Origin: an uncultured Blastocatellaceae bacterium
GTDB taxonomy: Bacteria > Acidobacteriota > Blastocatellia > Pyrinomonadales > Pyrinomonadaceae
Assembly: GCA_964516695.1 (NCBI GenBank)
Contig: CAZEZJ010000001.1
Span: 7,241-49,362, forward strand
Length of the DNA: 42,122 nucleotides
Direction of reading: 5' to 3'
How positions within the stretch are numbered: the stretch's first letter is position 1; each line of letters opens with the position of its first letter. A model generated the notes under the pieces. The model was given only the letters and a program-made list of their open reading frames with translations, made no database searches and was not told the DNA's origin. The translations under genes were made by a program, and so were the position numbers. Shown here in pieces: positions 1 through 25,149 of the stretch.

Positions 1-1416
1 TGTTTTAGTCCGAGCCATGAAGGTGTGGCTCTCTTCGACGAAGGCGTACAGCGGCCCACGACGACCGCCGGACACACGGGCAGCAACGCCATCGAATTCT
101 CTCAATCGGCGGATACGCTCTACGGTTATAACAACGAGTCAACCGAATTTGGCTTCCGTAAGATGAATGTGAGCGCCGCCGGTGTAGCGGTGACGAGCGT
201 GACGCAGAACTCCATCTATGGCTTCGGCGTGGACATCAAGGCCGACAACGGCCTGATTTACTCAAACACAGGTCTCGTCATTGACCCGCAGACGGGCGCA
301 CGCGTCGGCACGTTTAGCGGCCCCGGTTTCGGTTCTCTGGTCGCGCCGGATTCAGCGACGGGCCGCGTCTATTTCCTCACTCCCCAATCTTCGACTATGC
401 TTTTGCGCGCCTACGATATGCGTACCTATCTGCCCATTGATGCCGTTCGCATCACAGGCGTGAGCGGCACGCCGACCGGCCTCATTCGCTGGGGCGCGGT
501 CGGGCTGGCCTTCCGCACAGACACGGGCCGCGTCTATCTGGTTCGCACGCATCTCGTGCCCGCCGCCAATCAGCCGAGCGATTTTGACGGCGACGGCAAG
601 GCGGACGAAGCAATCTGGCGTCCCAGCGACGGCAACTGGCACATTCGTCAAAGCTCGGATAATTCTTCCAGAGTTCAGTACGACTGGGGCAGCGGCGCTC
701 TCGGAGACGTGGCCGTGCCGGGCGACTACGACGGCGACCGCAAGACTGACTTCGCCGTCTGGCGCAAGCCCGAAGGTAATTGGTACATTGTGCGCAGTTC
801 GACCAATACCGTGAGCGTGCAAAATTGGGGCGACAGCAGCGACGTGGCTGTGCCGGGCGATTATGACGGCGACCGCAAAGGTGATTTGGCCGTCTGGCGG
901 CCCTCGGACGGCAACTGGTATGTCCTGCAAAGCCTGACGAACACGGTCAGGATATACAACTGGGGAACTCTCGGAGACACGCCTGTGCCCGGAGACTACG
1001 ACCGCGACGGGCGCACGGATGCCGCCGTCTTCCGTTCAGGCGAGGGCAATTGGTACATCCTTCAGAGCGCGACTAACACGGCGCGGCTGGTCAGTTGGGG
1101 CGGCGGCGGAGACAAGCCTGTCGCAGCCGATTATGACGGCGATGGCCGGACGGACGTGGCCGTCTTCCGCGAAGCTGAAGGCAGTTGGTACATCCGCCGT
1201 AGTTCCAACAACACCGTCAGGGTGAAAAGCTGGGGCCTCGCCGGTGATGCGGCTGTTCCGGCGGACTACGACGGCGACGGGCAAGCTGACCTCGCCGTCT
1301 GGCGTCCCTCGGACGGCAATTGGTACATCCTCCAAAGCATTACCAACACCGTGCGCGTTCACGGCCTCGGCCTCTCCGGCGATGTCTGTGTTCCGTCCGC
1401 TTACCTGCCGCAGTAA
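1..1416 (+). CDS. FG-GAP/VCBS-like repeat protein, C-terminal part (5' end outside window)
   Basis: Frame 1 is open from nt 1, so the gene starts upstream. nt 580-1413 encode six tandem ~45-47 aa repeats D[YF]DGD[GR]xxDxAVWRPSxGNWYI...WG..GD.PVPG, which is the Ca-binding DxDGDG propeller-blade signature. The protein ends ...PSAYLPQ. Confidence 0.8.
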   Translation, partial: CFSPSHEGVALFDEGVQRPTTTAGHTGSNAIEFSQSADTLYGYNNESTEFGFRKMNVSAAGVAVTSVTQNSIYGFGVDIKADNGLIYSNTGLVIDPQTGARVGTFSGPGFGSLVAPDSATGRVYFLTPQSSTMLLRAYDMRTYLPIDAVRITGVSGTPTGLIRWGAVGLAFRTDTGRVYLVRTHLVPAANQPSDFDGDGKADEAIWRPSDGNWHIRQSSDNSSRVQYDWGSGALGDVAVPGDYDGDRKTDFAVWRKPEGNWYIVRSSTNTVSVQNWGDSSDVAVPGDYDGDRKGDLAVWRPSDGNWYVLQSLTNTVRIYNWGTLGDTPVPGDYDRDGRTDAAVFRSGEGNWYILQSATNTARLVSWGGGGDKPVAADYDGDGRTDVAVFREAEGSWYIRRSSNNTVRVKSWGLAGDAAVPADYDGDGQADLAVWRPSDGNWYILQSITNTVRVHGLGLSGDVCVPSAYLPQ

Positions 1417-1448
1417 GCGCGCGACAAAACGGAAGCGCGAAAGTTTTG

Positions 1449-1503
1449 GCAGATGAAGATAGCCGTCGCAGACACTATGACTGCGACGGCTATCTTCATC
1501 TGC
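1449..1503. terminator. Perfect 23-bp inverted repeat between convergent genes (putative bidirectional terminator)
   Basis: GCAGATGAAGATAGCCGTCGCAG (1449-1471), 9-nt loop, CTGCGACGGCTATCTTCATCTGC (1481-1503), followed by TTTA. It lies between the stop at 1416 (+) and the stop at 1525 (-). Confidence 0.6.
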
Positions 1504-1524
1504 TTTAACGCCGTGAGTTGCCAG

Positions 1525-3540
1525 CTAGCCTTTCGGAATTTCGATGCCGATGGCTTGGAGAAATCCGGTGGGCTTATCGCCGCCGATGAGCGCGAAGATA
1601 TAATCGTTTGGCAGCTTTATCTTCTCTTCTCTCGTGCGCGCGTCCATCAGCGCGACTTCGCCGTCCGCGATTGATTTGATGGCTTCGCCCAGACGCAACT
1701 TGATTTTGCCTTCGTCGATACACTGGTAGACCTGTAGCTTGTTGCCAAACTTCAAATCGTTCTTAAAGTCGCTGCGCACGACGAGCGTGACGTCGTTAAT
1801 CTCCGGCGGTGGACGAAAAACAATCTGCTCGCCGTCGCGCCGCGCGACCAAATCCACGGCGGCCTCAACGGCTGAGTTGCCGCCGCCGACGATGATGACG
1901 CGGCGACGTTTGAAGTCGTCAGGGTTGGAAAGCTTGTACATCACCTTGCTGCCCGTTTGCCCGTCGCGCGTAATCTGCATGTCTTCATTTTTGACGCCGA
2001 GCCGCATCGGCGTGCCGCGATTGCCGATAGCCAGCACGACGCGCCGCGCGCGATACGTCGCCTTCACCTTCTGCGGGCCTTTCTCCGTCTCAATCAAAAA
2101 ATAATCGCCGTCCTCGGCCTTCAAGACCTTCTGGCAACTCTCGCCTTCGTTGATGTGAACGTCGCCCGCCCTCATGTTGTTGAGCCACGTTTCCAGCATC
2201 TCCTCGCGTTGCTCTCCGGCGATTTTCTTGCGCATCTCGCCCATAATCTTTTCGCGCAAACCCTTGACCAACTGCGCGCGCGCGCTCTCATTGAGATTGC
2301 CGCGTAAGGGGGAAACGACCTGTTCCATCGTCTCGACGACCATCAGCTTGCGCTGCTCTATCGGCATCTCTAAAGACTGCGTTCCCGCTTTATCTTGCAA
2401 AGCCTCCGCCACGGGCAGAGCGCGTTTACCGTGTCCAGAGTCCGTCATCTGCCCGGAGAGTTCGTCCACGATGATTTCGCAGATGGCTGTCAACATCAGG
2501 TCGCGCTGTTCGGAAGCGAGTTTGTCCGCTTTCTTAAAAAGCGATTCGATAATCCGGCGCACGAGCGCGATGTCGCGCACCAGCGCATCCGAATCCGCCG
2601 CGCTTTGTTCGCTGAGGAGTTTGGCGAGCGCTTCTTCGACAAGCTGCTCGCGATGGTCGTATAGCCCTGGAACTTCTATTGCGCCGCGCCATTCCATCGT
2701 CTCCGGCTTGAGAAAAACGTACTTGCCCTTCGGATACGCATCAATCGTCGCCAGCACTTTGTCCTGCTCGATGGCGACGAACTTGAGATTGCATTTGCGC
2801 GCCATCAAAGCCGCTGACAATCCTGCGACGCCAATGCCGATGACGGCCACATCAAGCTCCGCCTTCGGCTCCGGCGCGACACCGTTATTCAGTTCTTGCG
2901 CGATGTGCTTGATGACATCCGCGCCTTCGTTAGCGGCGTTTTTGATGAGCGGCGTGCCCGACACATCGCCGATGATGTAGCAGCCCGCAACGTTCGTCAT
3001 AAACTTTTCGTTGCGCACGGGAACGGGACGCGGGCGTATCTTCTTGGTCGTGTTGACGACGATACACGCCTTCGGATTAACGGGACATTCAAGCTGGCAG
3101 GCCGTGTCTTCCAAACACTGGTCGGGAGCAACAGGCGTGGCGATGTTGTCCTTCATCGCCAACACGTCGTGCGGGCACGCATCAACGCAGGCATGACAGC
3201 CGATGCAGCGGTTCGGAAAAATAACGGGGTGCGGATAGTCCGGCCCATTCGGGTCTAAGAGTGCGAGTTCTTCAGGTGTAATCGGAATGGTCAGGTCAAC
3301 ATCGTCGTCAACAACTTTCGGCGGCGCGGCTGGCTTGGTCAACAAATAACGGGCCAGAGCCGCATCGCTCAAAGCGAAGCCGACGGCGACGATGATGAGA
3401 AATACACTGATGCCCGCCCACCCGTACCACGGCAGGCCGCCGAAGTAGCTCTTCAAAAACTCGCCCTCGCCGGACCACTGGTTAATCGCCAGCAGCAACA
3501 TCAGAAGCGCGAGAATAAGCAGCAATTGCGACTTCTTCAT
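1525..3540 (-). CDS. Membrane-anchored 4Fe-4S ferredoxin / FAD- and NAD(P)H-binding pyridine nucleotide-disulfide-type oxidoreductase
   Basis: Two N-terminal hydrophobic helices. CIGCHACVDACP (canonical CX2CX2CX3CP) plus an atypical CLEDTACQLECP. GxGxxG (VIGIGVAG) and GxGxxA (VGGGNSAVEAA) dinucleotide folds. An AGCYIIGDV flavin motif and a long charged helical insert are also present. Confidence 0.8.
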   Translation of the reverse strand: MKKSQLLLILALLMLLLAINQWSGEGEFLKSYFGGLPWYGWAGISVFLIIVAVGFALSDAALARYLLTKPAAPPKVVDDDVDLTIPITPEELALLDPNGPDYPHPVIFPNRCIGCHACVDACPHDVLAMKDNIATPVAPDQCLEDTACQLECPVNPKACIVVNTTKKIRPRPVPVRNEKFMTNVAGCYIIGDVSGTPLIKNAANEGADVIKHIAQELNNGVAPEPKAELDVAVIGIGVAGLSAALMARKCNLKFVAIEQDKVLATIDAYPKGKYVFLKPETMEWRGAIEVPGLYDHREQLVEEALAKLLSEQSAADSDALVRDIALVRRIIESLFKKADKLASEQRDLMLTAICEIIVDELSGQMTDSGHGKRALPVAEALQDKAGTQSLEMPIEQRKLMVVETMEQVVSPLRGNLNESARAQLVKGLREKIMGEMRKKIAGEQREEMLETWLNNMRAGDVHINEGESCQKVLKAEDGDYFLIETEKGPQKVKATYRARRVVLAIGNRGTPMRLGVKNEDMQITRDGQTGSKVMYKLSNPDDFKRRRVIIVGGGNSAVEAAVDLVARRDGEQIVFRPPPEINDVTLVVRSDFKNDLKFGNKLQVYQCIDEGKIKLRLGEAIKSIADGEVALMDARTREEKIKLPNDYIFALIGGDKPTGFLQAIGIEIPKG

Positions 3541-3548
3541 AACTCTTC

Positions 3549-3617
3549 AGGTTTCAAGGTTTCGAGTTTCAGGTTTCAAGTTCTGCTCCGTAACTTGAAA
3601 CCTGACACTTGAAACCT
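3549..3617 (-). repeat. Nested palindrome of GGTTTCAAG-type units in an intra-operon spacer
   Basis: Core perfect 12-bp stem AGGTTTCAAGTT (3571-3582) / AACTTGAAACCT (3592-3603) with a 9-nt loop. Extra copies of AGGTTTCAAG lie 5' and of CTTGAAACCT lie 3'. It fills the 80-nt gap between the cytochrome gene stop and the flavoprotein gene start. Confidence 0.7.
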
Positions 3618-3620
3618 AAT

Positions 3621-5120
3621 TTATTGCGCGATGAGCGCAGGCTCCGTGGTCTTCAAATCCTTGATGATGGGCAAGCCCGCGGGCGCGCCAAAGAGCTTGG
3701 GCGTCCAGTGTATGTCTTTGATGTGTTGGACGTGGCAAGAGGTGCAGCTTGGCCCGCTGGCCGAAGGCATTTTAGCATCGGCGCGCTCGAAGAAAAGATT
3801 TGTATGACACTTCGAGCAGGTCGTGCGCGGGCTTTCGCGGTCGAGGCGTGCGCCGATGTAGCCCGTGCGGTGGCAACTGCTGCAAGACATCACACGGTTT
3901 GTGTTGTCAACGTCTTCAATGCCGTGGACGTTGAAGGGCACGCGCACGCGGTACATATGAATGCCGTGAAACTGCACGTTGCGCCAGTTGCGTTGATTGT
4001 CCGGCGTGACGCGATTCTTCCTTAACAGTTCGACGACTTCGGGCCTCACGGCCAGTTCTTCCGCGTCCAGTCCCTTCCAAACCCACTCGCCGTTTTTCAC
4101 CGGATAGCCGAAGGTGCCGCCGTGCGGAGTATGCACGCTCTTGCCGTTGTAGAGTTTCTTGTTGTTGTCGTTGTGGCAGCGGGCGCAGGCATCGAGCGCG
4201 TAGTTCATCGGGCTGAAATTCTCGCCGCGATGCTCCGTGTGGCAACTCATGCAGCCGATTCCGGCGTCGCGATGAGGCTTGATGACCGTGGCCGTGAAAC
4301 CGTCGGTCGTATGACAAGAGGTGCAGTTGGCCTCGATGCTGTTCGCCATCGTGTGGCAGTTTGTGCATGAGCCGGCGTTCGGTTTAGTGGCAATCGCGGG
4401 GATGAGCGAAAAGGAGGTCGCGTTGTGCGGGTTCGAAATGGGCTGCGGCGCAAACGCGTTGGCGTGAGCGTACCAGGCCAGAACTGACAGCCCGCCGATG
4501 ACGAGAGCGCCCCAGACGAAAATCGAGAAGGTCCACGGGCGAACCAAATCGCGCGTCGGCGTCCAGTTAAAACGCGACTTGCCGACGTGCGGCGGGCGGC
4601 GCGGGTGCAAGGGGCTGGGGCGTCCGGCCTTCTCGCGCGTGCGCTTGCCCCAGAAGACCTTGAGCGCGTCGGCCACTTCCGACGACGCGCGCTTGGCCGC
4701 GGCGCGCTGCTGCATCGCCCGCATCTCGCTCGACTTTGCGCCGCTCGTCCGCGCTTCAACCTCTCCGACGTTCATCGCAAACTGGTGCGAGACTCTGATA
4801 TGCAAATCGTTGTGGCGATAGTCGAAGTAAAGAGAAAAGGGACCGATTTGCAGAACGTCGCCGTCAGCGAGCGCTTCCGCTTCGTCAGCTTCGATGAGCC
4901 GCCCGTTGAGCGTCGTCGAGCTTGAGCGGCTAAGATTGATGAGAAAGAAGCGTCCGGCGATGAAGTTGATTCCGGCATGGAGGCGCGAAACCGAAGGATG
5001 ATTAAGAGAGACTTCGCACTCCGGCAGACGGCCCACGCGCAAGCCCTCTGTGACCAGCGTGGTCGAGTCTTGCGCACGGTCCTCGCGCGTGATGACGATG
5101 GTGCCTCTCTGTACGTCCAT
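3621..5120 (-). CDS. FHA domain - single TM - heptaheme c-type cytochrome fusion protein
   Basis: N-terminal FHA signature (GR...VSRLHA...LSRSSSTTLNG). Hydrophobic helix WTFSIFVWGALVIGGLSVLAWYA at aa ~196-218. Seven CXXCH motifs: CTNCH, CTSCH, CMSCH, CARCH, CSSCH, CSKCH, CTSCH (aa 252-463, nt ~3711-4373). Confidence 0.85.
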   Translation of the reverse strand: MDVQRGTIVITREDRAQDSTTLVTEGLRVGRLPECEVSLNHPSVSRLHAGINFIAGRFFLINLSRSSSTTLNGRLIEADEAEALADGDVLQIGPFSLYFDYRHNDLHIRVSHQFAMNVGEVEARTSGAKSSEMRAMQQRAAAKRASSEVADALKVFWGKRTREKAGRPSPLHPRRPPHVGKSRFNWTPTRDLVRPWTFSIFVWGALVIGGLSVLAWYAHANAFAPQPISNPHNATSFSLIPAIATKPNAGSCTNCHTMANSIEANCTSCHTTDGFTATVIKPHRDAGIGCMSCHTEHRGENFSPMNYALDACARCHNDNNKKLYNGKSVHTPHGGTFGYPVKNGEWVWKGLDAEELAVRPEVVELLRKNRVTPDNQRNWRNVQFHGIHMYRVRVPFNVHGIEDVDNTNRVMSCSSCHRTGYIGARLDRESPRTTCSKCHTNLFFERADAKMPSASGPSCTSCHVQHIKDIHWTPKLFGAPAGLPIIKDLKTTEPALIAQ

Positions 5121-5130
5121 AACTTTTTGC

Positions 5131-5251
5131 GAGTGATAGGTGATGGGTAATAGGTGATAAGTAAAAGAAAGATGTTTTCTCCTATCAACTATTACCTATC
5201 ACCCATCACTCTTTTACTTATCATCTATCACTCATCGCTTTTCACTACTTG
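5131..5251. repeat. Heptamer-built imperfect palindrome (GTGATRR family), copy 1
   Basis: 5133-5167 = GTGATAG GTGATGG GTAATAG GTGATAA GTAAAAG. 5182-5251 = CTATCAA CTATTAC CTATCAC CCATCAC TCTTTTA CTTATCA TCTATCA CTCATCG CTTTTCA CTACTTG. The arms are complementary and fill the spacer between two same-strand genes. Confidence 0.8.
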
Positions 5252-7744
5252 CTAATGCGCCCTGAAGTAGACGACCTGAAAAATGTGCACGAGCATGAGC
5301 GCCAGCATTAAAGAGGTGGAGACGACGTGCGGCGCGAGCCAGAGCTTGAGCAGTTGGTGCAGGTAGATGAGCGCATCAACGCGCCGCAGCGTGGCGGTCG
5401 TCTCGATGGCTTCGATTAAGAGACGCCGCGCCGCGGGGTCTAGCAAGTCTCCCGCCGCACGCTCAAACGTGGTGCGGGCCTCGGCCCACAGCGCCGTCAA
5501 TTCCTCGCGCCGGATATACTGCCGCAGCAAATATCTGAACGAGAGAAAACGCTTGCGCACCTTGCGCGTGATGAGCTTGCGCAATTTGGTTTGGTCCGGC
5601 TCGGCAATGGTCGCAATCTCGTCGCTAATCTGCGAGAGCGTTTCGCGCAATTCCGCGCGCCGCTCTCTTAAGTCTTCGATGAGCAGCGGGTCGCCTTCGA
5701 TGCTGGTCATAATGCGCGGCACGACGACGTAACAAATGATGCCGAAGAGTCCGGTGACGATGACGAGGTCGAACGTGACCATCAGGAGCGAAGTCAGCAG
5801 CCCGCCGGAGGAGCGCCCGCCGTGCAGGAGCAAGACGATGCCGGCGATTAATCCCAGATAGACGTGCGACAGCATCCAGTAGCGCAAGGGGCCTGCGCGG
5901 CGGCGGTAAATCTGCTTGCGCGCCGGATAGACCATCACCCACGCGATGCCGAAGAGTCCAACGAAGCCCGTCAACCAGCGCACGGTCAGCCAACTGCTGC
6001 CGCCTAGAAGCGCGTCCATCGTGTACTTACGCGCGGCCCAGAAAGTTAAAACAGTCAGGGCAACGGTCGCCAAGATTCCGCCGATGTGCCACATCAAAGC
6101 AACGGGGTCGCGCTTGTGTATGTTGCGCCCGATGGCGTGCGTCTGGTCGCGGAAGATGAGACCGATAGCGTTTTTCGCCTCGCTGAAATATTCACGTGGG
6201 TTCACGCGCACGAGCGCGCCCGTCGGGCAATTCTCCTCGCAGGAGTAAGCATGACGGCGCGTGCCCACGGGATTGAGCGGCGTGTTGTTGCAGAGATTGC
6301 ATTTGACGGCGAGCAGGTTTTCCGTCTCCGTCACAGGCAGAGGCTTTCGCGGCTCTGCGAGCGTCACCCAGTCAACGAGACGTGCGGGCAGACTGATGTG
6401 CGGTAGAGAGGCTTTGCGCGGAATCATCGAAATCGCGTTGTAGGGACATTGCGTGGCGCAATCGCCGCAGCCGATGCAGGTCTTCGGGTTAATGTCTATC
6501 TGCCCGCCGGCGAAGCGTCCGATGGCTCCGGTCGGGCAGCCCGTCAGGCATTCAGGGTCTTGGCAGTGTAGGCAGACGGCGGGCATCAAGACATGCTGAA
6601 TGGAAGCGCGTTGCGGCTCGACGGGGCGCGAGATGTGTATGCCGCGCCTGAGCAGCCTCGACTGGCCGTGAATCTTATGACAGGCCAGCGAGCAATTGCC
6701 GCAACGGACGCACAAGTCCATGTCCATCACGAGCAGATTCATGCCGTCAACGACGCCCGTGGAAATCTCCTTTCCGGCGGCCATCACCACGCGCTTGTCG
6801 GCGGCGGGCTGCGGCGCGGCGGCGTCAGCCAAACCGGAGAAGGCGGCAAACTCCGCGAGCACGGCGGCGCGCAAATCAGGATTGGCTTGCAAGTAAGAGA
6901 CGGAAATCTCCAACACTTCGGTGCGCGCCATGACGGTCGCCGTGTAGAGCCAATCTTGCTGTTCGCGCAGGGCTTCGAGGCCGAGGCAATTGCCAGCGCC
7001 GAGAAAGTCAACGCCCATCTGCTCGCTCACACCCAAGACCATCTCCGACAGTTCAGGGTTGAAGGCCACGCCGCGCGTGCGCCTGACCCAACCGTTTTTG
7101 ATGAAGACGACGCGATTGATGGGGTCTTTCTCTTGAAAGAGCACGTGGTTTTTTCCGTAGACGGTAAAGCGCGCGGCGTTGCCAAGTTTCTTCAGCAGTT
7201 CAGGACTGAAGGCGTTGCCCGCCGCTTGTCTGACATCTTCGAGCGTGCGTTTTAATCCGTGGTCGCGGTAGGTCACGTCGAGCATGTGGCCGAACTTCGG
7301 AAGCTTGCGCAGCAGTCGAAACGCGGGCCGCTGGATTTCGAGCACCTTGGCCTCTGCTTCCGGCGAAGCAATGACGGATGCGTTGCGCGGCAAGCCCGCC
7401 AGCACGGCCATCTCGCCAAAACTCTTGCCTTGCGGAATCTCCGCGACCTTCGCGCTCTTGCCGCTCTCATCCTGAACGAAAACGTCCACCTTGCCTTCGA
7501 CCAGAATATAGAAGGCGTTGCCGCCCCAGTCGCCCTGATTGATGATTTTCTCGCCCGGCTCGTAAATCCAGTAAGTCGCATAGGGGCCGACCTTCTTGCC
7601 CGCGTAGTTGCGCCCGTAGACGATGACTTCCAAATCAAGCTCATACTTGAAATGGCCGTCTTGACGGTCAACCAATTCGGCAATCAGGTCAACGCTCTTG
7701 ATGGCTTCGAGGATGCTTGTGTGATTGGTGATTTCGCGAGGCAT
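5252..7744 (-). CDS. Tandem cyclic-nucleotide-binding domains + four-cluster ferredoxin (DmsB/NrfC-like Cys pattern) + 5-TM domain with two HX13H helices
   Basis: The first CAP-type domain has the cassette FGEMAVLAGLPRNASV; the second is degenerate (GLEAL...LYTATV). Cys groups: CVRCGNCSLAC, CLHCQDPECLTGCP, CIGCGDCATQCP, CNLC...CEENCP. C-terminal TM helices include SHVYLGLIAGIVLLLHG and PHVVSTSLMLALMLVHI. No signal peptide is present. Confidence 0.85.
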   Translation of the reverse strand: MPREITNHTSILEAIKSVDLIAELVDRQDGHFKYELDLEVIVYGRNYAGKKVGPYATYWIYEPGEKIINQGDWGGNAFYILVEGKVDVFVQDESGKSAKVAEIPQGKSFGEMAVLAGLPRNASVIASPEAEAKVLEIQRPAFRLLRKLPKFGHMLDVTYRDHGLKRTLEDVRQAAGNAFSPELLKKLGNAARFTVYGKNHVLFQEKDPINRVVFIKNGWVRRTRGVAFNPELSEMVLGVSEQMGVDFLGAGNCLGLEALREQQDWLYTATVMARTEVLEISVSYLQANPDLRAAVLAEFAAFSGLADAAAPQPAADKRVVMAAGKEISTGVVDGMNLLVMDMDLCVRCGNCSLACHKIHGQSRLLRRGIHISRPVEPQRASIQHVLMPAVCLHCQDPECLTGCPTGAIGRFAGGQIDINPKTCIGCGDCATQCPYNAISMIPRKASLPHISLPARLVDWVTLAEPRKPLPVTETENLLAVKCNLCNNTPLNPVGTRRHAYSCEENCPTGALVRVNPREYFSEAKNAIGLIFRDQTHAIGRNIHKRDPVALMWHIGGILATVALTVLTFWAARKYTMDALLGGSSWLTVRWLTGFVGLFGIAWVMVYPARKQIYRRRAGPLRYWMLSHVYLGLIAGIVLLLHGGRSSGGLLTSLLMVTFDLVIVTGLFGIICYVVVPRIMTSIEGDPLLIEDLRERRAELRETLSQISDEIATIAEPDQTKLRKLITRKVRKRFLSFRYLLRQYIRREELTALWAEARTTFERAAGDLLDPAARRLLIEAIETTATLRRVDALIYLHQLLKLWLAPHVVSTSLMLALMLVHIFQVVYFRAH

Positions 7745-8266: not shown

Positions 8267-11131
8267 ATGAGCAACAATCTGCTTGCATTGATGAAGCTGG
8301 GCCAATCCATCTGGTACGACAATATCCGGCGCGCGATGCTGGAAAGCGGCGACTTGCAGACGAAGATAACGGAAGACGATTTGCGCGGCGTCACGTCGAA
8401 CCCGACCATCTTTGAAAAGGCCATCACCGGCTCAACAGACTACGATGAGCAGTTTCGCTCGCTCGCTAGCTCGGGCAAGAGCGTGCAGGAGATTTACGAA
8501 GCGCTGGTGCTCGAAGACATCGGTGACGCCGCCGATATCCTCCGGCCCGTTTACGACAAGACTAACGCGCTCGACGGCTACATCAGCCTCGAAGTCAACC
8601 CGCGATTGGCCTACGATACACAGGGCACGATTGAGGAAGCCGAGAGACTGTTCAAGCAGTTGAATCGTCCGAACGTGATGATTAAGATTCCGGCCTCGCA
8701 AGAAGGCTTGCCCGCCATCGAGGAGAGCATCTATCGCGGCATCAACATCAACATCACGATGATTTTCGCCATCGCCAATTACGAGCAGGTGGCCGAAAGC
8801 TTCATCAGAGGACTCGAACGCCGCGCCGCCGAAGGCAAGCCGGTCGAGCGCATCGCATCGGTCGCCAGCTTTTTCGTTTCGCGCGTTGACACGAGCATTG
8901 ATAAAGAGTTGGAAGACCGCGCCGAGAAAGCGGCCACCCCCGAAGAGAAACAGCGTTTGGAAAGCTTGCTGGGCCGCGCGGCCATCGCCAACGCGAAGCT
9001 TGCTTACCAGAAATTCAAAGAGATTTTCCACGGCGAGAGATTCAAGGCGCTCAAAGCACAGGGCGCGCAAGTGCAGCGCTGCTTGTGGGCTTCGACGGGA
9101 ACGAAGAATCCGAAGTATTCGGACGTCCTGTATGTTGATAATCTGATTGGCCCGGAGACGGTCAACACCGTTCCGCCCGCGACCTACACAGCCGTTCGCG
9201 ACCACGGGCGCGTGGAGTTAACGCTCGAAGAGAATCTGGACGAAAGCCGCGCTCTCATCGCTCAACTTTCAGGATTAGGCATCGACCTGAAGGCCGTGAC
9301 CGACAAGCTACAGCAGGACGGGCTGACGGCTTTCGTCGGCTCGTTTGACACGCTCGTCGAATCCATCGAAGCCAAACGCGACGCCCTTCTCTCCGGCATT
9401 CAAGGGAGGCTCGTGTCCAGCTTGGGAAAGTACGCTGACGCGGTGAACGCCGCGCTCAAGGAGGCGGACAAGGGCGAGGTGATGCGCCGCATCTGGCGCA
9501 AAGACGCCTCGCTTTGGAAGACGGACGAAGCGCACCAGAAGATTATCAAAAACGCGCTCGGCTGGCTGAACGTGCCCGACGCGATGATTGGCGTCGAGGA
9601 TGATTTGATAGCCTTCGCTGACCGCATTCGCGAGGGTGGCCGTTTTCGTCACGTCATGCTCTGCGGGATGGGCGGCTCGTCGCTCTGCCCCGAGGTCTTT
9701 CGTCAAACCTTCGGCGCGCAAAGCAACTATCCCGAACTGCTCGTCCTCGATTCGACAGACCCGGACGTGCTCGAAAGTTTCTCCCGGCAGATTGACCTCA
9801 AAAGCTGTCTCTTTATCATCTCTTCAAAATCGGGCACGACGACCGAACCGCTCGCCTTCTACAAATATTGGTACGACCAGGTAAGTAAGGTGAGCGACAA
9901 CCCGGGCGAGAGCTTCGTCGCCATCACAGACCCCGGCACGAAGATGGAGCAGATGGCGACTGAAGACAAATTCAGGCGCATCTTTCTCAACCCGCCGGAC
10001 ATCGGCGGGCGCTACTCCGCGCTCTCTTACTTCGGCATTGTCCCGGCAGCGCTCGCTGGCCTCGACATCACGAAATTGCTCGACCGCGCGGAGCGCATCG
10101 TTCATTCTTGCGCATCGGTCGTCCCGGCAGCCGAAAATCCCGGCGCGCGTCTGGGCGCAATCCTCGCGGAGTGTGCGCGGGCCGGACGCGATAAGCTGAC
10201 CATCATCGCTGACCCGAAAATCAGCGCGCTCGGCCTCTGGATTGAACAACTCGTCGCGGAAAGCACCGGCAAGGAAGGCAAAGGAATCTTGCCCGTCTCG
10301 GGCGAGCCGCTCGGGGGCCCATCCGTTTACGGTGATGACCGCCTCTTCGTCTCTCTGGCGGTCGGTCGCATTGACGGCGAGACGGAAGTGAAGCTCAAAG
10401 CGCTCGCAGCCGCGGGCCACCCAATCGTTTATCGCACGCTGACGGATTTGTACGACTTGGGCGAAGAGTTTTTCCTGTGGGAGATTGCGACCGCGTTCGC
10501 CGGCTATCGTCTCGGCATCAATCCGTTTGACCAGCCCAACGTGCAGGAATCGAAGGACGCCACCAAAGAACTGCTCGACGCGTTTACACAAAGCGGCGCG
10601 TTGACAGAGCAGATGATGCTCGCGACCGACGGCACGTTGACCGTCTACGTTGACGAACCCGTGCGCGCTCTTCCGTCTTCTTCCGTGGGCGACGTTCTCG
10701 CAGCACATTTATCAAGGGCGGGCGCGGGCGACTACATCGCGTTGCTCAGCTACATAGAGGAAACACCCGAGCACGAAGCCCTGCTTCAGGCCATCCGCAC
10801 CAGCTTGCGCGACGCGACCCGTTGTGCGACAACCACGGGCTACGGCCCGCGCTTTCTGCATTCGACCGGACAACTGCATAAGGGCGGCTCCGACGCTGGC
10901 GTCTTTCTGCAAATCACCGCGCCAGACCACACAGACCTTCCTATTCCCGAAGCGGCTTACACCTTTAGCATTCTCAAGCAGGCGCAAGCGCTCGGTGATT
11001 TTCGTTCGCTCTCATCGAGAGGCCGCCGCGCCATTCGCGTTGACTTAGGTGCGGACGCGGTCGCAGGTCTCAGGCAGTTGCAACAACTAATCGGCGCAGC
11101 CATCCCGCGCTCCGAAGCACAGAAGCAGTAA
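8267..11131 (+). CDS. tal-pgi: Bifunctional transaldolase / glucose-6-phosphate isomerase
   Basis: 954 aa. The N-terminal ~370 aa look like transaldolase (LGQSIWYDNIRR..., TSNPTIF, MIKIPA). The C-terminal part looks like PGI (GMGGSSL, SKSGTT-E). A GAGGAG RBS lies 8 nt upstream of the ATG. Confidence 0.9.
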   Translation: MSNNLLALMKLGQSIWYDNIRRAMLESGDLQTKITEDDLRGVTSNPTIFEKAITGSTDYDEQFRSLASSGKSVQEIYEALVLEDIGDAADILRPVYDKTNALDGYISLEVNPRLAYDTQGTIEEAERLFKQLNRPNVMIKIPASQEGLPAIEESIYRGININITMIFAIANYEQVAESFIRGLERRAAEGKPVERIASVASFFVSRVDTSIDKELEDRAEKAATPEEKQRLESLLGRAAIANAKLAYQKFKEIFHGERFKALKAQGAQVQRCLWASTGTKNPKYSDVLYVDNLIGPETVNTVPPATYTAVRDHGRVELTLEENLDESRALIAQLSGLGIDLKAVTDKLQQDGLTAFVGSFDTLVESIEAKRDALLSGIQGRLVSSLGKYADAVNAALKEADKGEVMRRIWRKDASLWKTDEAHQKIIKNALGWLNVPDAMIGVEDDLIAFADRIREGGRFRHVMLCGMGGSSLCPEVFRQTFGAQSNYPELLVLDSTDPDVLESFSRQIDLKSCLFIISSKSGTTTEPLAFYKYWYDQVSKVSDNPGESFVAITDPGTKMEQMATEDKFRRIFLNPPDIGGRYSALSYFGIVPAALAGLDITKLLDRAERIVHSCASVVPAAENPGARLGAILAECARAGRDKLTIIADPKISALGLWIEQLVAESTGKEGKGILPVSGEPLGGPSVYGDDRLFVSLAVGRIDGETEVKLKALAAAGHPIVYRTLTDLYDLGEEFFLWEIATAFAGYRLGINPFDQPNVQESKDATKELLDAFTQSGALTEQMMLATDGTLTVYVDEPVRALPSSSVGDVLAAHLSRAGAGDYIALLSYIEETPEHEALLQAIRTSLRDATRCATTTGYGPRFLHSTGQLHKGGSDAGVFLQITAPDHTDLPIPEAAYTFSILKQAQALGDFRSLSSRGRRAIRVDLGADAVAGLRQLQQLIGAAIPRSEAQKQ

Positions 11132-11206
11132 AAGGAGGAATGATGAACGCGGAACGATGAACTATTCGAAGCTTGTCTTTGACTGCCGCGTTCATCGTTC
11201 CTCCTT
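11132..11206 (+). repeat. Long hairpin in the tal-pgi / zwf spacer
   Basis: AAGGAGGAATGATGAACGCGG (11132-11152) pairs 20/21 with CCGCGTTCATCGTTCCTCCTT (11186-11206). The 33-nt loop carries a central AAGCTT. Confidence 0.7.
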
Positions 11207-11229
11207 CATCATTTTTCCGAAGGAAAGTT

Positions 11230-12771
11230 ATGTCCTCGATTGTCATGGAAAACCCTCTGCGTGAGGGCATCAGGCTTGAACGAACGGCCGGGCCGTGTGC
11301 GGTCGTCATTTTCGGGGCGAGCGGCGATTTGACGAAACGCAAGCTCTTGCCCGCGCTCTACAGGCTGGTGCAGCAGCGTCTTGTCCCCGCCGAGTTTGCC
11401 ATTGTGGGCCTCGCGCGAACGGAGATGACGAGCGAAGAGTTTCGCGCGCGGATGCGGGAAGCGATTGAGGAGTTTTCGGCGGAGAAGAGCGTTGACGAAG
11501 AGGTCTGGAATTCGTTTGCGCAGAGCCTCTACTACATCACCGGCGACATCAACACGCCCGCCGATTACGTGAAGCTCACCGAACTGCTCGAACAGGTTGA
11601 CCGCGAGCGCGGCACGCAAGGCAACCGCCTCTTTTATTTGTCCGTCGCGCCGCGCTTCTACAGCGAAGCCGTCAAGCAGTTGGGCGAGGCCGGACTCGCC
11701 AAAGCTCAAGACGGAGCGTGGGTGCGCGTCATCATCGAAAAGCCGTTCGGCTCTGACTTGACGAGCGCACGCGCTCTCAATCAGGAGATTCACCAGCACC
11801 TACACGAGTCGCAAATCTATCGCATCGACCATTATCTCGGCAAAGAGACCGTGCAGAATTTGCTGGTCTTTCGTTTCGCCAACGGCATCTTCGAGCCGCT
11901 CTGGAATCGCCAGTACATAGACCACGTTCAACTGACGAACGCCGAGGCGGTCGGCGTTGAAGGACGCGGCGGCTACTACGAGACGGCGGGCGTCGTGCGC
12001 GACATGATTCAGAACCACGTCTTTCAGGTGCTTTCGCTAGTCGTGATGGAGCCGCCCGCGAGCCTCGATTCGGAAGCCGTGCGCGACGAAAAATATAAGG
12101 CGATGATGGCCGCGCGCCCGTTCACAACTGAGCGCGTGCGCGAGGAATGCGTGCGCGGGCAATACGGGCCGGGTTCGATTGCGGGTCAACCCGTGCCCGG
12201 CTACCGGCAGGAAGAGGGCGTCGCGCCTGACTCCGCGACCGAGACCTTCGCGATGCTCACCATGTACTTCGACAACTGGCGCTGGGCGGGCGTGCCCTTC
12301 TTCATCCGCTCCGGCAAGCGCCTGCCAAAGCGCGTCACAGAGATTGCGATTCAATTCAAGTCTGCCCCGCTACAGCTTTTCGGTGAAGCCGGAGAACACG
12401 TCGCGCCCAACCAACTCATCATCCGCATTCAGCCCGACGAGGGCATTACGCTTCGCTTCGCCGCCAAGATTCCAGGACAGACGACCAACATCCGCGAAGT
12501 CAACATGGACTTTCGCTACGGCGCATCCTTCGGCATCCAACTCGCGGAGGCTTACGAACGCCTCCTGCTAGATTGCATCCTTGGCGATTCCACGCTCTAC
12601 GCGCGCAAGGACATGACCGAACACGGCTGGGAACTCGTCATGCCTATCCTAGACGAATGGGCCGCGACGAAAAACGAGGTTGAGTTTCCCAACTACGAAG
12701 CCGGAACCTGGGGGCCACAAAGCTCTCACGAGATGCTCGAACGCACGGGCCGCCGCTGGCGCAGGCCGTAA
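11230..12771 (+). CDS. zwf: Glucose-6-phosphate 1-dehydrogenase
   Basis: Motifs VIFGASGDLTKRKL, RIDHYLGKE and EKPFG. The ATG at 11230 is preferred over the TTG at 11173, which lies inside the upstream hairpin. Confidence 0.92.
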   Translation: MSSIVMENPLREGIRLERTAGPCAVVIFGASGDLTKRKLLPALYRLVQQRLVPAEFAIVGLARTEMTSEEFRARMREAIEEFSAEKSVDEEVWNSFAQSLYYITGDINTPADYVKLTELLEQVDRERGTQGNRLFYLSVAPRFYSEAVKQLGEAGLAKAQDGAWVRVIIEKPFGSDLTSARALNQEIHQHLHESQIYRIDHYLGKETVQNLLVFRFANGIFEPLWNRQYIDHVQLTNAEAVGVEGRGGYYETAGVVRDMIQNHVFQVLSLVVMEPPASLDSEAVRDEKYKAMMAARPFTTERVREECVRGQYGPGSIAGQPVPGYRQEEGVAPDSATETFAMLTMYFDNWRWAGVPFFIRSGKRLPKRVTEIAIQFKSAPLQLFGEAGEHVAPNQLIIRIQPDEGITLRFAAKIPGQTTNIREVNMDFRYGASFGIQLAEAYERLLLDCILGDSTLYARKDMTEHGWELVMPILDEWAATKNEVEFPNYEAGTWGPQSSHEMLERTGRRWRRP

Positions 12772-12775
12772 AAAC

Positions 12776-12849
12776 GGTAATAGGTGATAAGTGATGGGTG
12801 ATAAGTAAAAGCTTTTCTCCTATTACCTATCACCCATCACCCATCACTG
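12776..12849. repeat. Heptamer-built imperfect palindrome (GTGATRR family), copy 2
   Basis: GGTAATA GGTGATA AGTGATG GGTGATA AGTAAAA GC TTTTCTC CTATTAC CTATCAC CCATCAC CCATCAC. The centre is AAAAGCTTTT (12807-12816). It fills the zwf/opcA spacer. Confidence 0.8.
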
Positions 12850-12861
12850 TTTTTGAGAGTT

Positions 12862-14028
12862 ATGGAAACACAGACGCACGAAAGCACGGTTTCGGTCTCG
12901 ACGCTGCGAGGGATTGATGTCGGCAGGATAGAGAAGGAACTGGCGATGATGTGGCAGCAGGCATCTGCCGTGGGACAGGGCGCGGATGACGCGGGCGTGG
13001 TGCGCGCGTGCGCGTTGAATCTGATTGTTTACACGACCGCGCAGGAAGACCGCGCGCAGATAAACGAGATGCTCGAAGCGATTAACGAGCGGCATCCGGG
13101 ACGCGCGCTGGTGCTGGTGGCCGACCGCGCTTCGAGCGCTTCGAGCCTTGAGGCTTACGTCTCCAGCCGTTGTCGCGCGCTGGGCGCGAGCAAGCGGCAG
13201 GTCTGCGGCGAGCAGGTGACGATTGAAGCGGCTGGGCCAATCGTTGAGATGGCAGCCAGCGCTATCGCCCCGCTGCTCGTGCCCGACGTGCCTGTCTTTC
13301 TCTGGTGGAAAGACATTCCGCATGATGACGATAAATTGTTTGACCGCATGGCCCGCATGTCGGACCGCGTGGTGATTGATTCGGCGGCCTTCGACCACCC
13401 GCGCGAAGACCTGCTGCGCTTGGCAGACATAGTGCGCTCGCTTGGGCGAGACACGCGCATCTCCGACCTCAACTGGGGACGCCTGACTTCATGGCGAACG
13501 CTGCTGGCGAGTTTCTGGGACGTGGCGGAATATCGCCCGCATCTTGAGCGCATTGAAAGCGTGAAGATAGAGTATGACCCGCCCGATGTCGCGCCAGGCG
13601 AGATAGCGCCGAAGGCTCTGCTCGCCGCGGGCTGGCTCGCCTCGCGGCTCAATTGGAAGTTGGAAGAGGACGGCGCAACGAGAGAGGGCGACACGTCGCG
13701 CTTCAGGTTTACGACAGCGGCGGCGCAACCGCTCGTTGTCGAAATGCGTGCGCTGCATGATGAACAAGGAGCGGACGGAATGCTGGCCTCTTTAACTCTG
13801 ACGGAAGCGACAAACCGCGCCAGCTTTTCCGTCGCTCTCAGCCGCGACGGACACAGGCTGGAAACAAAAGCCAGCATGGATGACACACACACGGTCGGGC
13901 GCGTGCTGGCCTATGAACAGAAAAGCGAGGGGCAGCGTCTTAGCCGCGAGCTTGGCTTGCTGGCGCGTGACCGTATCTATGAGCAAACGCTCTTTCTCGC
14001 CGCCGAATTGACCGCCGCCGTAAAATAG
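12862..14028 (+). CDS. opcA: OpcA-like glucose-6-phosphate dehydrogenase assembly/effector protein
   Basis: It sits immediately after zwf. The length (~390 aa) fits, and the VRACALNLIVY-type N-terminal motif is recalled from the OpcA family. The ATG at 12862 is preferred over the TTG at 12853. Confidence 0.7.
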   Translation: METQTHESTVSVSTLRGIDVGRIEKELAMMWQQASAVGQGADDAGVVRACALNLIVYTTAQEDRAQINEMLEAINERHPGRALVLVADRASSASSLEAYVSSRCRALGASKRQVCGEQVTIEAAGPIVEMAASAIAPLLVPDVPVFLWWKDIPHDDDKLFDRMARMSDRVVIDSAAFDHPREDLLRLADIVRSLGRDTRISDLNWGRLTSWRTLLASFWDVAEYRPHLERIESVKIEYDPPDVAPGEIAPKALLAAGWLASRLNWKLEEDGATREGDTSRFRFTTAAAQPLVVEMRALHDEQGADGMLASLTLTEATNRASFSVALSRDGHRLETKASMDDTHTVGRVLAYEQKSEGQRLSRELGLLARDRIYEQTLFLAAELTAAVK

Positions 14029-14071
14029 AGAGTATCAAAATGTTCTGCTCTTAAATCTCTGTAGCGACGTG

Positions 14072-15082
14072 ATGATAAAAAAAATGATTCTGGCCGGGGA
14101 TATTGGTGGAACGAAGACGAATGTGGCGCTGCTGGAAACAGACGGGCGCGAAGCGGGCGCGCTCGTCGCCCAGAAGACGTTTCCGAGCGCCGATTATGAT
14201 TCGCTGGAAAAGATGATTGAGGAATTTCTCGCCGCGGAGCGACGGCCCGCTTTGACGCACGCTTGCTTTGGTGTGGCCGGGCCGGTCGTTGACGGGCGCG
14301 TGGATGCGACGAATTTGAAGTGGGATGTGAGCGCCGATGCGCTAGTCAAAGTTTTGGGCATCTCTCGCGTCAGTATCATCAACGACCTTGAAGCGACGGC
14401 TTACGGCATCGAAGCGCTCACGCCCGCGCAGTTGCACACGCTCAATAAAGGAACGGGAGCACGCGACGGCAATCGTGCATTGATTGCCGCCGGAACGGGC
14501 CTCGGCATGGCCGGACTCGTCCGCCATGAAGGCCACTATTATCCTGTCCCCTCCGAAGGCGGGCATACGGATTTCGCTCCGCGCAACCATCTGGAAATGC
14601 AACTGCTCGATTACCTGTTGAAGAATGAAGAGTTCGGCGGGCACGTCTCTTACGAGCGCGTGCTTTCGGGGCCTGGCCTCTTCACTATCTATAGTTTTCT
14701 GCGCGACACGGGCTTCGCCGAAGAGCCTGCGTGGTTGGCCACAGAGATTGCCGGCGAAGGCGACAATTCGGCTGTCGTCTCGCGTGCGGCGCTGGCACAC
14801 GAATCCGAGTTGGCCGTCAAAGCCCTGGACATGTTCGTCCGCATCTACGGCGCGATGACAGGTAATCTCGCGCTGTTGATGATGGCGACAGGCGGCTGCT
14901 ATGTCGGCGGCGGCATCGCGCCGAAGATTATCGAAAAGCTCAAGGACGGCGCTTTCCTTGAGACCTATATCGCCAAAGGCAGATTCCAATCGCTGCTGGC
15001 CGCAATGCCCGTGCATGTTATTCTCGACGATAAGACGGCTCTCTACGGCGCGGCGCTCAAGGCGCTCGAAACGAGCGGGTGA
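14072..15082 (+). CDS. glk: Glucokinase
   Basis: N-terminal ILAGDIGGTKTN ATP-binding motif, ~335 aa, and a Glk-family layout. The start could be 14069, 14072 or 14084. Confidence 0.85.
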   Translation: MIKKMILAGDIGGTKTNVALLETDGREAGALVAQKTFPSADYDSLEKMIEEFLAAERRPALTHACFGVAGPVVDGRVDATNLKWDVSADALVKVLGISRVSIINDLEATAYGIEALTPAQLHTLNKGTGARDGNRALIAAGTGLGMAGLVRHEGHYYPVPSEGGHTDFAPRNHLEMQLLDYLLKNEEFGGHVSYERVLSGPGLFTIYSFLRDTGFAEEPAWLATEIAGEGDNSAVVSRAALAHESELAVKALDMFVRIYGAMTGNLALLMMATGGCYVGGGIAPKIIEKLKDGAFLETYIAKGRFQSLLAAMPVHVILDDKTALYGAALKALETSG

Positions 15083-15849
15083 GTTTTCAGGTGACAGAGA
15101 CAAAGCAGTTCCCAAAAGTTTCCATCTTTGAAGAAGCGGAAGAGGTGGCGCGCGCTGCCGCCGAACGCTTCGTCGCAGCGGCAGGCGAAGCGATTGAGGC
15201 GGAGGGTCGTTTCAGCTTGGCGCTCGCGGGAGGCTCAACTCCGCGGCGCACCTATCAACTGCTGGCGAGCGACGACTTCAAAGACCGCGTTGACTGGACC
15301 AAAACGCACGTCTTCTTTGGCGACGAACGATGCGTGCCGCCAACCGATGCCGACAGCAATTACCGGATGGCGGATGAAGCGCTGCTCTCGCGCGTCAGCA
15401 TTCCTGCGCGCAACGTTCACCGCATCAGGGGCGAGGGCGACGCGGTGGCAAACGCGCGGCTCTACGAGGATGAGCTTCAGACTTTCTTTGCCAATGAACG
15501 CTGGCCGCGCTTTTCGCTCGTCCTGCTCGGCATGGGCGACGACGCCCACACGGCCTCGCTCTTTCCCGGCACACAGGCGCTCGCGGAGCAAAGAGCGTGG
15601 GTGGCGGCCAACTGGGTCGAGAAGCTAAACGCCTACCGCATCACGCTCACGGCTCCGGCCATTAACCACGCCGCGCGAATTGTTTTCCTCGTGACGGGAG
15701 CGGGCAAGGCCGAGAGCTTACAATCAGTCTTGCTCGGCAGAGCGCCCGATTCCGGTTTAGAGTCTGAATTATTACCTTCGCAGTTGATTCGCCCCGTAGA
15801 CGGCGCGTTGGAATGGCTCGTTGATAGAGCGGCAGCAGCACGCCTCTAA
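15079..15849 (+). CDS. pgl: 6-phosphogluconolactonase
   Basis: Motifs LALAGGSTP, FFGDERCVP and LLGMGDDAHTASLFPG. The GTG start overlaps the glk stop (GTGA). Confidence 0.9.
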   Translation: MSFQVTETKQFPKVSIFEEAEEVARAAAERFVAAAGEAIEAEGRFSLALAGGSTPRRTYQLLASDDFKDRVDWTKTHVFFGDERCVPPTDADSNYRMADEALLSRVSIPARNVHRIRGEGDAVANARLYEDELQTFFANERWPRFSLVLLGMGDDAHTASLFPGTQALAEQRAWVAANWVEKLNAYRITLTAPAINHAARIVFLVTGAGKAESLQSVLLGRAPDSGLESELLPSQLIRPVDGALEWLVDRAAAARL

Positions 15850-15914
15850 AATTTAGAGCGATTGAATTTGGCTCTCGGTGGCTGGTAGCTGGCCTAAGCA
15901 GCTACGCGCTAGAG

Positions 15915-17444: not shown

Positions 17445-17479
17445 ACCACTAAGCCACGCGGCAACATTCAGCCTTCCTT

Positions 17480-21408: not shown

Positions 21409-21454
21409 CGAATCACTGCCTTCCAGCGTGGCCGATGTGATACGCTTGGGTGCG

Positions 21455-23137: not shown

Positions 23138-23203
23138 GGAGAGGCGAACGCCTGTTTGGCTAGCGCGTTTATTTCACGCAACTGTGGATGCATATAATTG
23201 AAG

Positions 23204-23578: not shown

Positions 23579-23610
23579 CTCTACTGGCTCCTGACTTTCG
23601 GCATTGAGGT

Positions 23611-25044: not shown

Positions 25045-25102
25045 GAACCCCAGTAGAAACGATGAGCGCCGAATAAAGCTCACGTCAGACATGAGAAGAG
25101 AA

Positions 25103-25149
25103 GAGGCCGGATGTCAGAGGCTCTTGATGAGCCTCTCACATCCGGCCTC
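25103..25149. terminator. 21-bp stem hairpin between convergent genes
   Basis: GAGGCCGGATGTCAGAGGCTC / GAGCCTCTCACATCCGGCCTC with one mismatch and a 5-nt loop. It lies between the stops at 25044 (+) and 25197 (-). Confidence 0.55.

Follow-up and report, generated by a model that had tools for sequence, protein, structure and literature searches.

Does the gene at positions 3621..5120 of the Acidobacteriota sequence analysed here really place a phosphothreonine (pThr) reader and a multiheme electron carrier on the two sides of one membrane, and if so, what does such a protein do? The sequence is a stretch of 42,122 nucleotides from an uncultured Blastocatellaceae bacterium (GenBank assembly GCA_964516695.1, contig CAZEZJ010000001.1, positions 7,241 to 49,362 of the forward strand), referred to below as the window. 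An original prediction made from the letters alone had described an FHA domain, a basic linker, one transmembrane (TM) helix and seven CXXCH motifs in a single polypeptide, and had taken this to mean that Ser/Thr-kinase signalling is coupled to a heptaheme cytochrome. According to Pfam, hydropathy, the motif count and AlphaFold2 (AF2), this anatomy holds: in the encoded protein, a cytoplasmic FHA domain and a seven-heme cytochrome in the periplasm are joined by a single membrane helix. As for its function, we read the 499-aa protein as the periplasmic output subunit of a three-gene module that would carry electrons from NAD(P)H to the periplasm, a reading to which we give about an even chance (roughly 0.5).

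The gene is a single uninterrupted 499-codon frame with an ATG start, and it lies on the minus strand, a detail that the original prediction had left unstated; the plus-strand translation of the same interval is interrupted by stops. In an alignment of 62 homologues M1 is invariant and T7, I10, R12, D14, and R15 are at least 90% conserved, which shows that the start codon is correct and argues against a start further downstream that would leave the FHA part separate or untranslated. The fusion is no product of chance or of assembly either, because the 120 best relatives are full length with both domains and it is carried by 17 genome loci and 80 soil-metagenome loci (the genome scan yielded close relatives only).

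The FHA domain is recognised by Pfam (PF00498, aa 28-93, E = 4.2e-14, 53.2 bits vs a cut-off of 20.7; 54.8 bits for the isolated N-terminal part). The AF2 model, built with 62 homologues, contains a confident beta-sandwich over aa 6-112 (predicted local distance difference test score, pLDDT, about 70-89), and Foldseek matches it with probability 1.00 to the FHA domains of Ki67, GarA, OdhI, Rv0020c, and DgcB. Rv1747 is also among the neighbours, and the returns are limited to pThr-binding FHA domains; strand assignment and Foldseek together give the eleven-strand sandwich expected of an FHA fold. Conserved positions are G30-R31, S45-R46-x-H48, S66, S/N67, and N72-G73-R74. Among 121 family members G30, R31, and S66 are invariant, followed by R46 and H48 (120/121 each) and S45 (119/121), and position 67 is Ser in 93, including the present protein, and Asn in 28.

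These positions were mapped to known pThr contacts by HMMER alignment to GarA and by the spacing of Rad53 FHA1, from which we take the equivalences to be R31=R70, S45=S85, R46=N86, H48=H88, S66=T106, and S67=N107. On that mapping five of the six Rad53-equivalent contact residues are kept; GarA-type bacterial FHA domains have Arg at the position of Rad53 N86. Thus, of the Arg, Ser, and Asn residues to which the original prediction had tied pThr binding, the first two are retained and Asn only in part of the family (28/121), and a fused homologue (P0140, see below) has the canonical S-N-G-T loop. Judged from these residues, the domain likely binds pThr.

Between FHA domain and membrane lies a basic linker with 18 K/R vs 6 D/E over aa 121-195. 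The original prediction had called it a linker of ~90 aa, and it is more than a spacer: aa 153-197, with the consensus LKVFWxKRTREKAGRxSPLHPxxPPxxGKxRFNWxPTRDLVRPW, form the most conserved stretch of the whole protein. AF2 confidence over these residues is low, and since top conservation combined with low AF2 confidence is typical of segments that fold on a partner, we infer a docking or regulatory segment. It also holds T189, the sole invariant cytoplasmic Thr of the FHA-cytochrome, with an invariant Leu at +3; that T189-x-x-L serves as the ligand of the protein's own FHA domain, in the manner of GarA, OdhI, and DgcB, would be speculation by analogy.

Hydropathy reveals one hydrophobic segment only (aa 195-218), which AF2 models as a helix over aa 196-219 (pLDDT about 90). 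The 15 residues ahead of the helix include four K/R and those after it none, so by the positive-inside rule the FHA domain and linker are predicted to be cytoplasmic and the hemes periplasmic; the topological argument of the original prediction is borne out. The periplasmic placement of the hemes is also predicted from fused homologues, in which a second TM helix leads from the heme domain back to cytoplasmic ferredoxin and flavin domains.

The heme domain has exactly seven CXXCH motifs, at aa 252, 266, 290, 312, 413, 435, and 459, with all 14 Cys and 7 His invariant in the 62-sequence alignment. In the same alignment exactly seven further periplasmic His are invariant (H232, H283, H297, H333, H385, H388, and H466), and because seven motifs are matched by seven extra His, the residue pattern points to seven electron-transfer hemes of the bis-His type, none of which is obviously open for catalysis. 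Pfam families Cytochrom_c3_2, Cytochrome_C7, and Paired_CXXCH_1 score above their cut-offs. In a profile search against the PDB the best matches are short heme packs of the MtrA/OcwA kind, with no close solved relative. The resemblance to ImcH-type quinol-oxidising cytochromes suggested by the original prediction is confined to heme count and membrane anchoring: the NapC/NirT family (Cytochrom_NNT, PF03264) was looked for and gave no match even at E<=10, and NrfH reached only E = 0.41 in the family profile search. Moreover, the conserved partners described next indicate a route fed by cytoplasmic Fe-S and flavin proteins and mediated by a putative di-heme-b domain.

A search of 5.8 billion proteins returned 1836 matches, and each of the best 120 spans the full length (488-526 aa) and has both FHA and cytochrome c Pfam domains; those named among them are 'FHA domain-containing protein' of Pyrinomonadaceae, Blastocatellia, or unclassified Acidobacteriota. 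The closest relative among the matches listed is 93% identical and comes from a Pyrinomonadaceae metagenome-assembled genome (MAG). Every named family member belongs to the Acidobacteriota (Pyrinomonadaceae, other Blastocatellia, and one Chloracidobacterium MAG).

In the window the FHA-cytochrome gene stands between two others of its strand, a gene upstream for an 830-aa protein with cyclic nucleotide monophosphate (cNMP)-binding, Fe-S, and TM domains and one downstream for a 671-aa ferredoxin-flavoprotein. This order is kept in 17/17 genome loci, one of them with two tandem copies; in locus L006 (8001-17422, an Acidobacteriota genome) two complete three-gene modules stand in tandem, the second 47-55% identical to the window proteins. 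Among the soil-metagenome loci the 830-aa type lies upstream in 63/63 informative cases and the flavoprotein gene downstream in 53/53, and the pairing of the cNMP-FeS-TM gene with the FHA-cytochrome gene persists in relatives at only 31-39% identity. The three proteins very probably form one functional unit.

The 830-aa protein carries two cNMP-binding domains (aa about 40-300), the first with a near-canonical FGE...PRNA phosphate-binding cassette and the second degenerate, followed by four [4Fe-4S] motifs of the CxxCxxCxxxC type (aa 345-506). The Fe-S region is nearest to the electron-wire subunits HycB, ArrB, and NrfC, and all 16 of its Cys are invariant, including in the most distant homologues. 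The C-terminal domain (aa 545-830; window 5255-6112, minus strand) has five TM helices; TM4 and TM5 are separated by an insert of about 100 aa that is conserved, helical, and cytoplasmic. Four His, two on TM3 (H627, H641) and two on TM5 (H806, H820), are invariant in 121 close homologues and in 6 distant ones. Both helices run from cytoplasm to periplasm, and the His within each pair are 14 residues apart (H-x13-H), which places H627 and H806 at one depth and H641 and H820 at the other. Two such pairs with a spacing of 13-14, one on each of two helices, form the well-known signature of di-heme-b carriers such as cytochrome b and the ferric-reductase domains of NADPH oxidase (NOX). Conserved heme ligands are absent from the single helix of the cytochrome and from the helices of the flavoprotein. 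In the locus of a distant relative (P0129), for whose cytochrome no FHA Pfam match is recorded, a gene for an adenylate/guanylate cyclase-AAA-TPR protein (1003-4368) lies directly upstream of the cNMP-FeS-TM gene.

The 671-aa protein consists of two N-terminal TM helices, a ferredoxin domain for two [4Fe-4S] clusters, and a flavoprotein resembling thioredoxin reductase (TrxR), with flavin adenine dinucleotide (FAD) and NAD(P)H motifs (the latter GGGNSAVE). Pyr_redox_3 and Pyr_redox_2 are above their cut-offs, and among PDB structures it is most closely related to YpdA/Bdr and to ferredoxin-NADP reductase (FNR) of the TR type. It is no TrxR, since the list of its Cys shows no CxxC in the flavin domain, and the YpdA equivalog model gives a score of 109 vs a cut-off of 339.9. 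The flavoprotein domain also contains a highly charged insert of about 130 aa (aa about 290-445), found in the closest relatives only. The original prediction had proposed this insert as a place to look for pThr read by the FHA domain; as a general target it fails, being missing in most relatives and replaced by a double zinc ribbon in the fused homologue P0140. The site is an insertion hotspot.

Fusions link the cytochrome and the flavoprotein more directly. A HMMER scan of 1.84 billion representatives gave 62 matches below 1e-30, some of them proteins of 930-1380 aa. P0140 and P0171 combine FHA domain, TM helix, seven hemes, second TM helix, ferredoxin (Fer4), and flavoprotein in one chain, and P0225, P0231, and P0242 have 2-5 FHA domains ahead of the same arrangement. 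In total, the fused FHA-cytochrome-flavoprotein is represented by about 70 clusters, the named ones being Blastocatellia. The second TM helix of the fused forms follows the heme domain and has the motif GGLPWY just before it, and the same motif precedes TM2 of the split flavoprotein. Because this periplasmic GGLPWY stands ahead of a TM helix in both, it confirms the homology of fused and split forms and the out-to-in topology. Such Rosetta-stone fusions are evidence that cytochrome and flavoprotein act together.

What the sequences show is how the domains are arranged, that the cofactor ligands are conserved, that the genes are strictly linked and that some are fused; on this basis the following route can be proposed. 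At its TrxR-like FAD domain the flavoprotein, anchored by its TM hairpin, would oxidise a cytoplasmic reductant, NAD(P)H or another, and the electrons would pass from FAD through its own two [4Fe-4S] clusters to the four of the 830-aa subunit. The bilayer would be crossed on two stacked b-hemes with H627/H806 and H641/H820 as ligands, and the seven bis-His c-hemes of the FHA-cytochrome would then pass the electrons into the periplasm, where redox enzymes, metals, or extracellular acceptors are candidates for the final step. Such a route would need no quinone, and its direction could be reversed. All regulatory parts would sit on the cytoplasmic face: both cNMP domains, and also the FHA head with the juxtamembrane motif, these last two near the Fe-S and flavin subunits. 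There the FHA domain would most likely bind pThr on a partner subunit or in its own T189-x-x-L, so that a Hanks-type kinase could gate assembly or electron flow, and the cNMP domains of the 830-aa subunit may add control by cyclic nucleotides. Taken to its full extent, and only tentatively, the module may be an 'electron valve' that resembles NOX and works without quinone (from NAD(P)H to FAD and on through some six [4Fe-4S] clusters and two b-hemes to seven c-hemes), gated post-translationally by a built-in cyclic-nucleotide sensor and pThr reader; this stronger version we hold to be possible yet doubtful.

Several observations weigh against this proposal. The two b-hemes of the 5-TM domain are putative and are deduced from the His pattern: no Pfam family matches this domain at E<=10, Ferric_reduct included, and its AF2 model (pLDDT 72) has no Foldseek match in the PDB with E<0.3. 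If it does bind heme, the lack of both a Pfam match and a structural neighbour in the PDB means that it may represent a family of b-type membrane cytochromes that is new to science. AF2 fails on the cytochrome domain (pLDDT<50), which precludes a comparison of its fold. As for gene linkage, some loci have no adjoining flavoprotein gene, and one fused form has no adjoining cNMP-FeS-TM gene. The pentose-phosphate operon next to the module, described below, adjoins it in close relatives only (L001, L015; 9/80 metagenome loci). On the signalling side, the present protein and 77% of close relatives have Ser where the canonical FHA loop has Asn, and a search of the window for Ser/Thr kinases and PP2C phosphatases found none.

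Kinases occur within 8 kb in 4/17 genome and 9/80 metagenome loci at varying positions, and Ser/Thr kinases were therefore rejected as conserved partners. In two loci, though, they adjoin directly: two paralogous Ser/Thr kinases with FGE-sulfatase domains stand beside a fused FHA-cytochrome-flavoprotein gene (L020, 11545-16219), and in L079 the place right behind the FHA-cytochrome gene, elsewhere that of the flavoprotein gene, is taken by a kinase gene (2713-3282). These rare cases are suggestive of a kinase link and, like the cyclase gene at the P0129 locus, give the proposed mechanism some weak support from context. The coupling to Ser/Thr-kinase signalling that the original prediction had drawn from the architecture thus keeps the support of mostly retained pThr-contact residues and lacks that of a resident kinase or phosphatase; judged from sequence, it is plausible.

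Most of the same evidence bears on other explanations. The FHA domain may be a phosphorylation-independent scaffold, comparable to the FHA-like cytoplasmic part of the type III secretion ring proteins YscD/PrgH, and would then dock the cytochrome on the Fe-S and flavin subunits or oligomerise it with no kinase input. The Pfam family Yop-YscD_cpl also matches (E = 1.7e-7, below the family cut-off), no kinase or phosphatase is conserved nearby, the loop Asn has become Ser in most close relatives, and the variants with 2-5 tandem FHA domains look scaffold-like. Phospho-independent FHA-like domains, however, usually lose the phosphate-contact residues, and here the phosphate-contacting Arg31, Ser45, and Ser66 vary hardly or not at all within the family; the same is true of His48. 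Since, in addition, the nearest relatives in sequence and structure are all pThr binders (GarA, OdhI, Ki67, DgcB, and Rv1747) and kinases directly adjoin the gene in two loci, we regard a pure scaffold as unlikely. Less probable again is a quinol dehydrogenase of the CymA/NrfH/ImcH type, which would pass electrons from menaquinol to periplasmic or extracellular acceptors with the FHA domain for tuning and with accessory or unrelated neighbours. Near-absolute linkage to, or fusion with, cytoplasmic Fe-S and flavin proteins is unexpected of a quinol oxidase that works by itself. At quinol sites of the NrfH type heme 1 is not bis-His, whereas all seven hemes appear bis-His here, and the profile searches given above favour MtrA/OcwA-like packs over Cytochrom_NNT and NrfH. 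What the quinol reading does explain is the gross NapC/NirT architecture of one N-terminal helix with a periplasmic multiheme domain, the ImcH heme count, and an invariant His232 with prolines between the helix and heme 1, near the membrane; it is also favoured by the authors of a Ferrigenium preprint for their FHA-nonaheme protein (bioRxiv 10.64898/2026.01.22.701106).

Nothing in the sequence fixes the direction of electron flow, and an analogous FHA-multiheme cluster is found in Fe(II)-oxidising Gallionellaceae, so the electrons might instead enter from Fe(II) or reduced humics and travel via the c-hemes to cytoplasmic ferredoxin or NAD(P)+. This inward flow we consider improbable. Reduction of NAD(P)+ from typical periplasmic donors is uphill and the operon has no energy-coupling (ion-translocating) subunit, and cultured Blastocatellia are aerobic organoheterotrophs. 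Finally, the module might be a redox sensor, in which the periplasmic hemes report the redox state and the FHA domain recruits or releases phospho-proteins. In favour of a sensor are three regulatory-type domains over two subunits (one FHA and two cNMP-binding) and the frequency of two-component systems among the neighbours. Against it, the module has not only seven c-hemes but also FAD, two putative b-hemes, and about six Fe-S clusters, which far exceeds the hardware of known heme sensors, and none of the subunits has a kinase, GGDEF, or HTH output domain. We hold this to be the most improbable of the explanations considered.

In comparison with described systems, the proposed electron module shares parts with several. 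NapC/NirT cytochromes (CymA, NrfH) and Geobacter ImcH, the latter with seven CXXCH motifs, are likewise multiheme cytochromes anchored in the inner membrane and facing the periplasm, but have neither an FHA head nor the conserved juxtamembrane motif, and the obligatory Fe-S and flavin partners of the present protein suggest a quinone-independent feed. GarA/OdhI, Rv1747, and Bdellovibrio DgcB are the closest FHA relatives in sequence and structure. The Rv1747 ABC exporter is a membrane protein with cytoplasmic FHA heads under Hanks-kinase control, and DgcB, GarA, and OdhI are switched by binding their own phosphorylated tails, a parallel to the T189-x-x-L idea. None of them, however, has redox cofactors or a comparable extracytoplasmic domain joined to it.

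By analogy of function, the closest described systems appear to be the Tmc, Hmc, and Dsr transmembrane complexes. Tmc, Hmc, and DsrMKJOP of sulfate reducers follow the same logic, in which Fe-S proteins in the cytoplasm, a b-type cytochrome in the membrane, and a cytochrome c with several hemes in the periplasm link both sides. NCBIfam matches are weak and partial, with all thresholds widely missed (TmcA 24.5 vs 114, DsrO 54.4 vs 200, and HmcB 37.1 vs 420 bits). Unlike these complexes, the present module has no HdrD/CCG or NarI-type subunit; its cytoplasmic Fe-S wire is fused to a novel 5-TM domain, and flavoprotein, FHA, and cNMP domains are present. NOX and ferric-reductase-domain proteins and Fre-MsrQ perform the chemistry that is proposed here, from NAD(P)H through flavin and two b-hemes to the outside, with the difference that Fe-S wires and a heptaheme c output replace direct transfer to O2 or MsrP.

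As for the architecture itself, the literature on FHA domains with multiheme cytochromes yielded no functional study, only two papers on Gallionellaceae. The table of a 2023 Gallionellaceae pangenome lists, without comment, a 'Forkhead-associated protein' with 10 CXXCH motifs in 27 genomes (PMC10734462), and a 2026 preprint describes a cluster with an FHA-nonaheme ('NHC') cytochrome in Ferrigenium straubiae and other Gallionellaceae, its authors stating that FHA domains were previously unreported with multiheme cytochromes (bioRxiv 10.64898/2026.01.22.701106). The FHA-multiheme fusion is thus already catalogued and uncharacterised. By its description, the Ferrigenium protein also has a cytoplasmic FHA domain, one TM helix, and periplasmic hemes, next to a 5-TM protein without recognisable motifs and a cytosolic [4Fe-4S] protein. 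The heme count differs, nine or ten there and seven here. In that cluster the 5-TM protein and the Fe-S protein are two polypeptides, whereas here one chain combines both parts with two cNMP-binding domains, and the Ferrigenium cluster has no reported flavoprotein partner. Ferrigenium, moreover, is an Fe(II) oxidiser of the Pseudomonadota, whereas the present protein is from the Acidobacteriota.

Table 1. Positions in the window of the FHA-cytochrome gene, its parts, its two partner genes, and the hairpins between them
Feature	Position	Strand	Evidence
Upstream partner gene (gene 1), 830 aa	5252..7744	-	Pfam, motifs, TM prediction, linkage
Hairpin between gene 1 and gene 2, ending 10 nt before the ATG	5131..5246	-	RNA folding
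Whole gene (gene 2), FHA-TM-heptaheme cytochrome c, 499 aa	3621..5120	-	Open reading frame (ORF), Pfam, motifs, homologue conservation
FHA domain, aa 1-112, cytoplasmic	4785..5120	-	Pfam, AF2, Foldseek, residue conservation
Juxtamembrane motif, aa 153-197	4530..4664	-	Conservation; low AF2 pLDDT
Single TM helix, signal anchor, N-in/C-out, aa 196-218	4467..4535	-	Hydropathy, AF2, charge count
Periplasmic heptaheme domain, aa 225-472	3705..4448	-	CXXCH motifs, invariant His, Pfam
Hairpin between gene 2 and gene 3	3557..3617	-	RNA folding
Downstream partner gene (gene 3), 671 aa	1525..3540	-	Pfam, motifs, profile search, linkage

The two intercistronic hairpins of the operon have folding z-scores of -6.2 and -5.5, and their arms are built of the short repeated motifs GTGATRGG, GTTTCAAG, and GATGAAC. 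Four more palindromes with such arms occupy other spacers of the window (1449-1503, 11132-11218, 12784-12848, and 25098-25154), on which ground the operon hairpins were rejected as operon-specific regulators. Relatives have hairpins at the same spacers with different sequences, and in the window none is followed by a T-run or has an Rfam match. They look like genome-wide repetitive extragenic palindromic (REP)-like elements. A 74-aa upstream ORF of the closest relative was also rejected as a fourth component of the module, being not conserved and frame-broken in the window.

Divergent from the three genes lies a complete oxidative pentose-phosphate/glucose operon (8267-17935, plus strand), encoding a 954-aa transaldolase-phosphoglucose isomerase fusion, zwf (glucose-6-phosphate dehydrogenase), opcA, glk, pgl, an SLT/SBP protein, and rpiB. 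A source of NADPH thus adjoins a putative NAD(P)H-oxidising complex, which is weak context; as a conserved partner the operon was rejected, its adjacency being confined to close relatives. Further away, 21308-25044 and 36073-41816 each hold a set of PAS histidine kinase and sigma-54-dependent response regulator, one of the kinases with a PilS-like 6-TM domain. Together with two type IV pilin-like genes (28161-29483) and a Wzy_C/O-antigen-ligase-like gene (29511-31622), this suggests a region of pilus regulation and glycosylation. Large FG-GAP/VCBS-repeat proteins, probably secreted or at the surface, are encoded at 25-1416 (plus strand) and 25197-27623 (minus strand).

Multiheme electron export underlies metal cycling, extracellular respiration, and bioelectrochemistry, and its known regulation is almost wholly transcriptional. 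A pThr reader and cNMP sensors built into the subunits would show that electron export can be switched at the protein level. If true, the 'electron valve' would be the first extracytoplasmic electron-transfer chain on which signalling by Hanks kinases and FHA domains acts directly, and it would be widespread in soil Blastocatellia, with an analogue in Fe(II)-oxidising Gallionellaceae, whose FHA-multiheme cluster the same logic may explain. For the abundant and physiologically obscure Acidobacteriota of soil, Pyrinomonadaceae and other Blastocatellia among them, it would provide a defined redox module.

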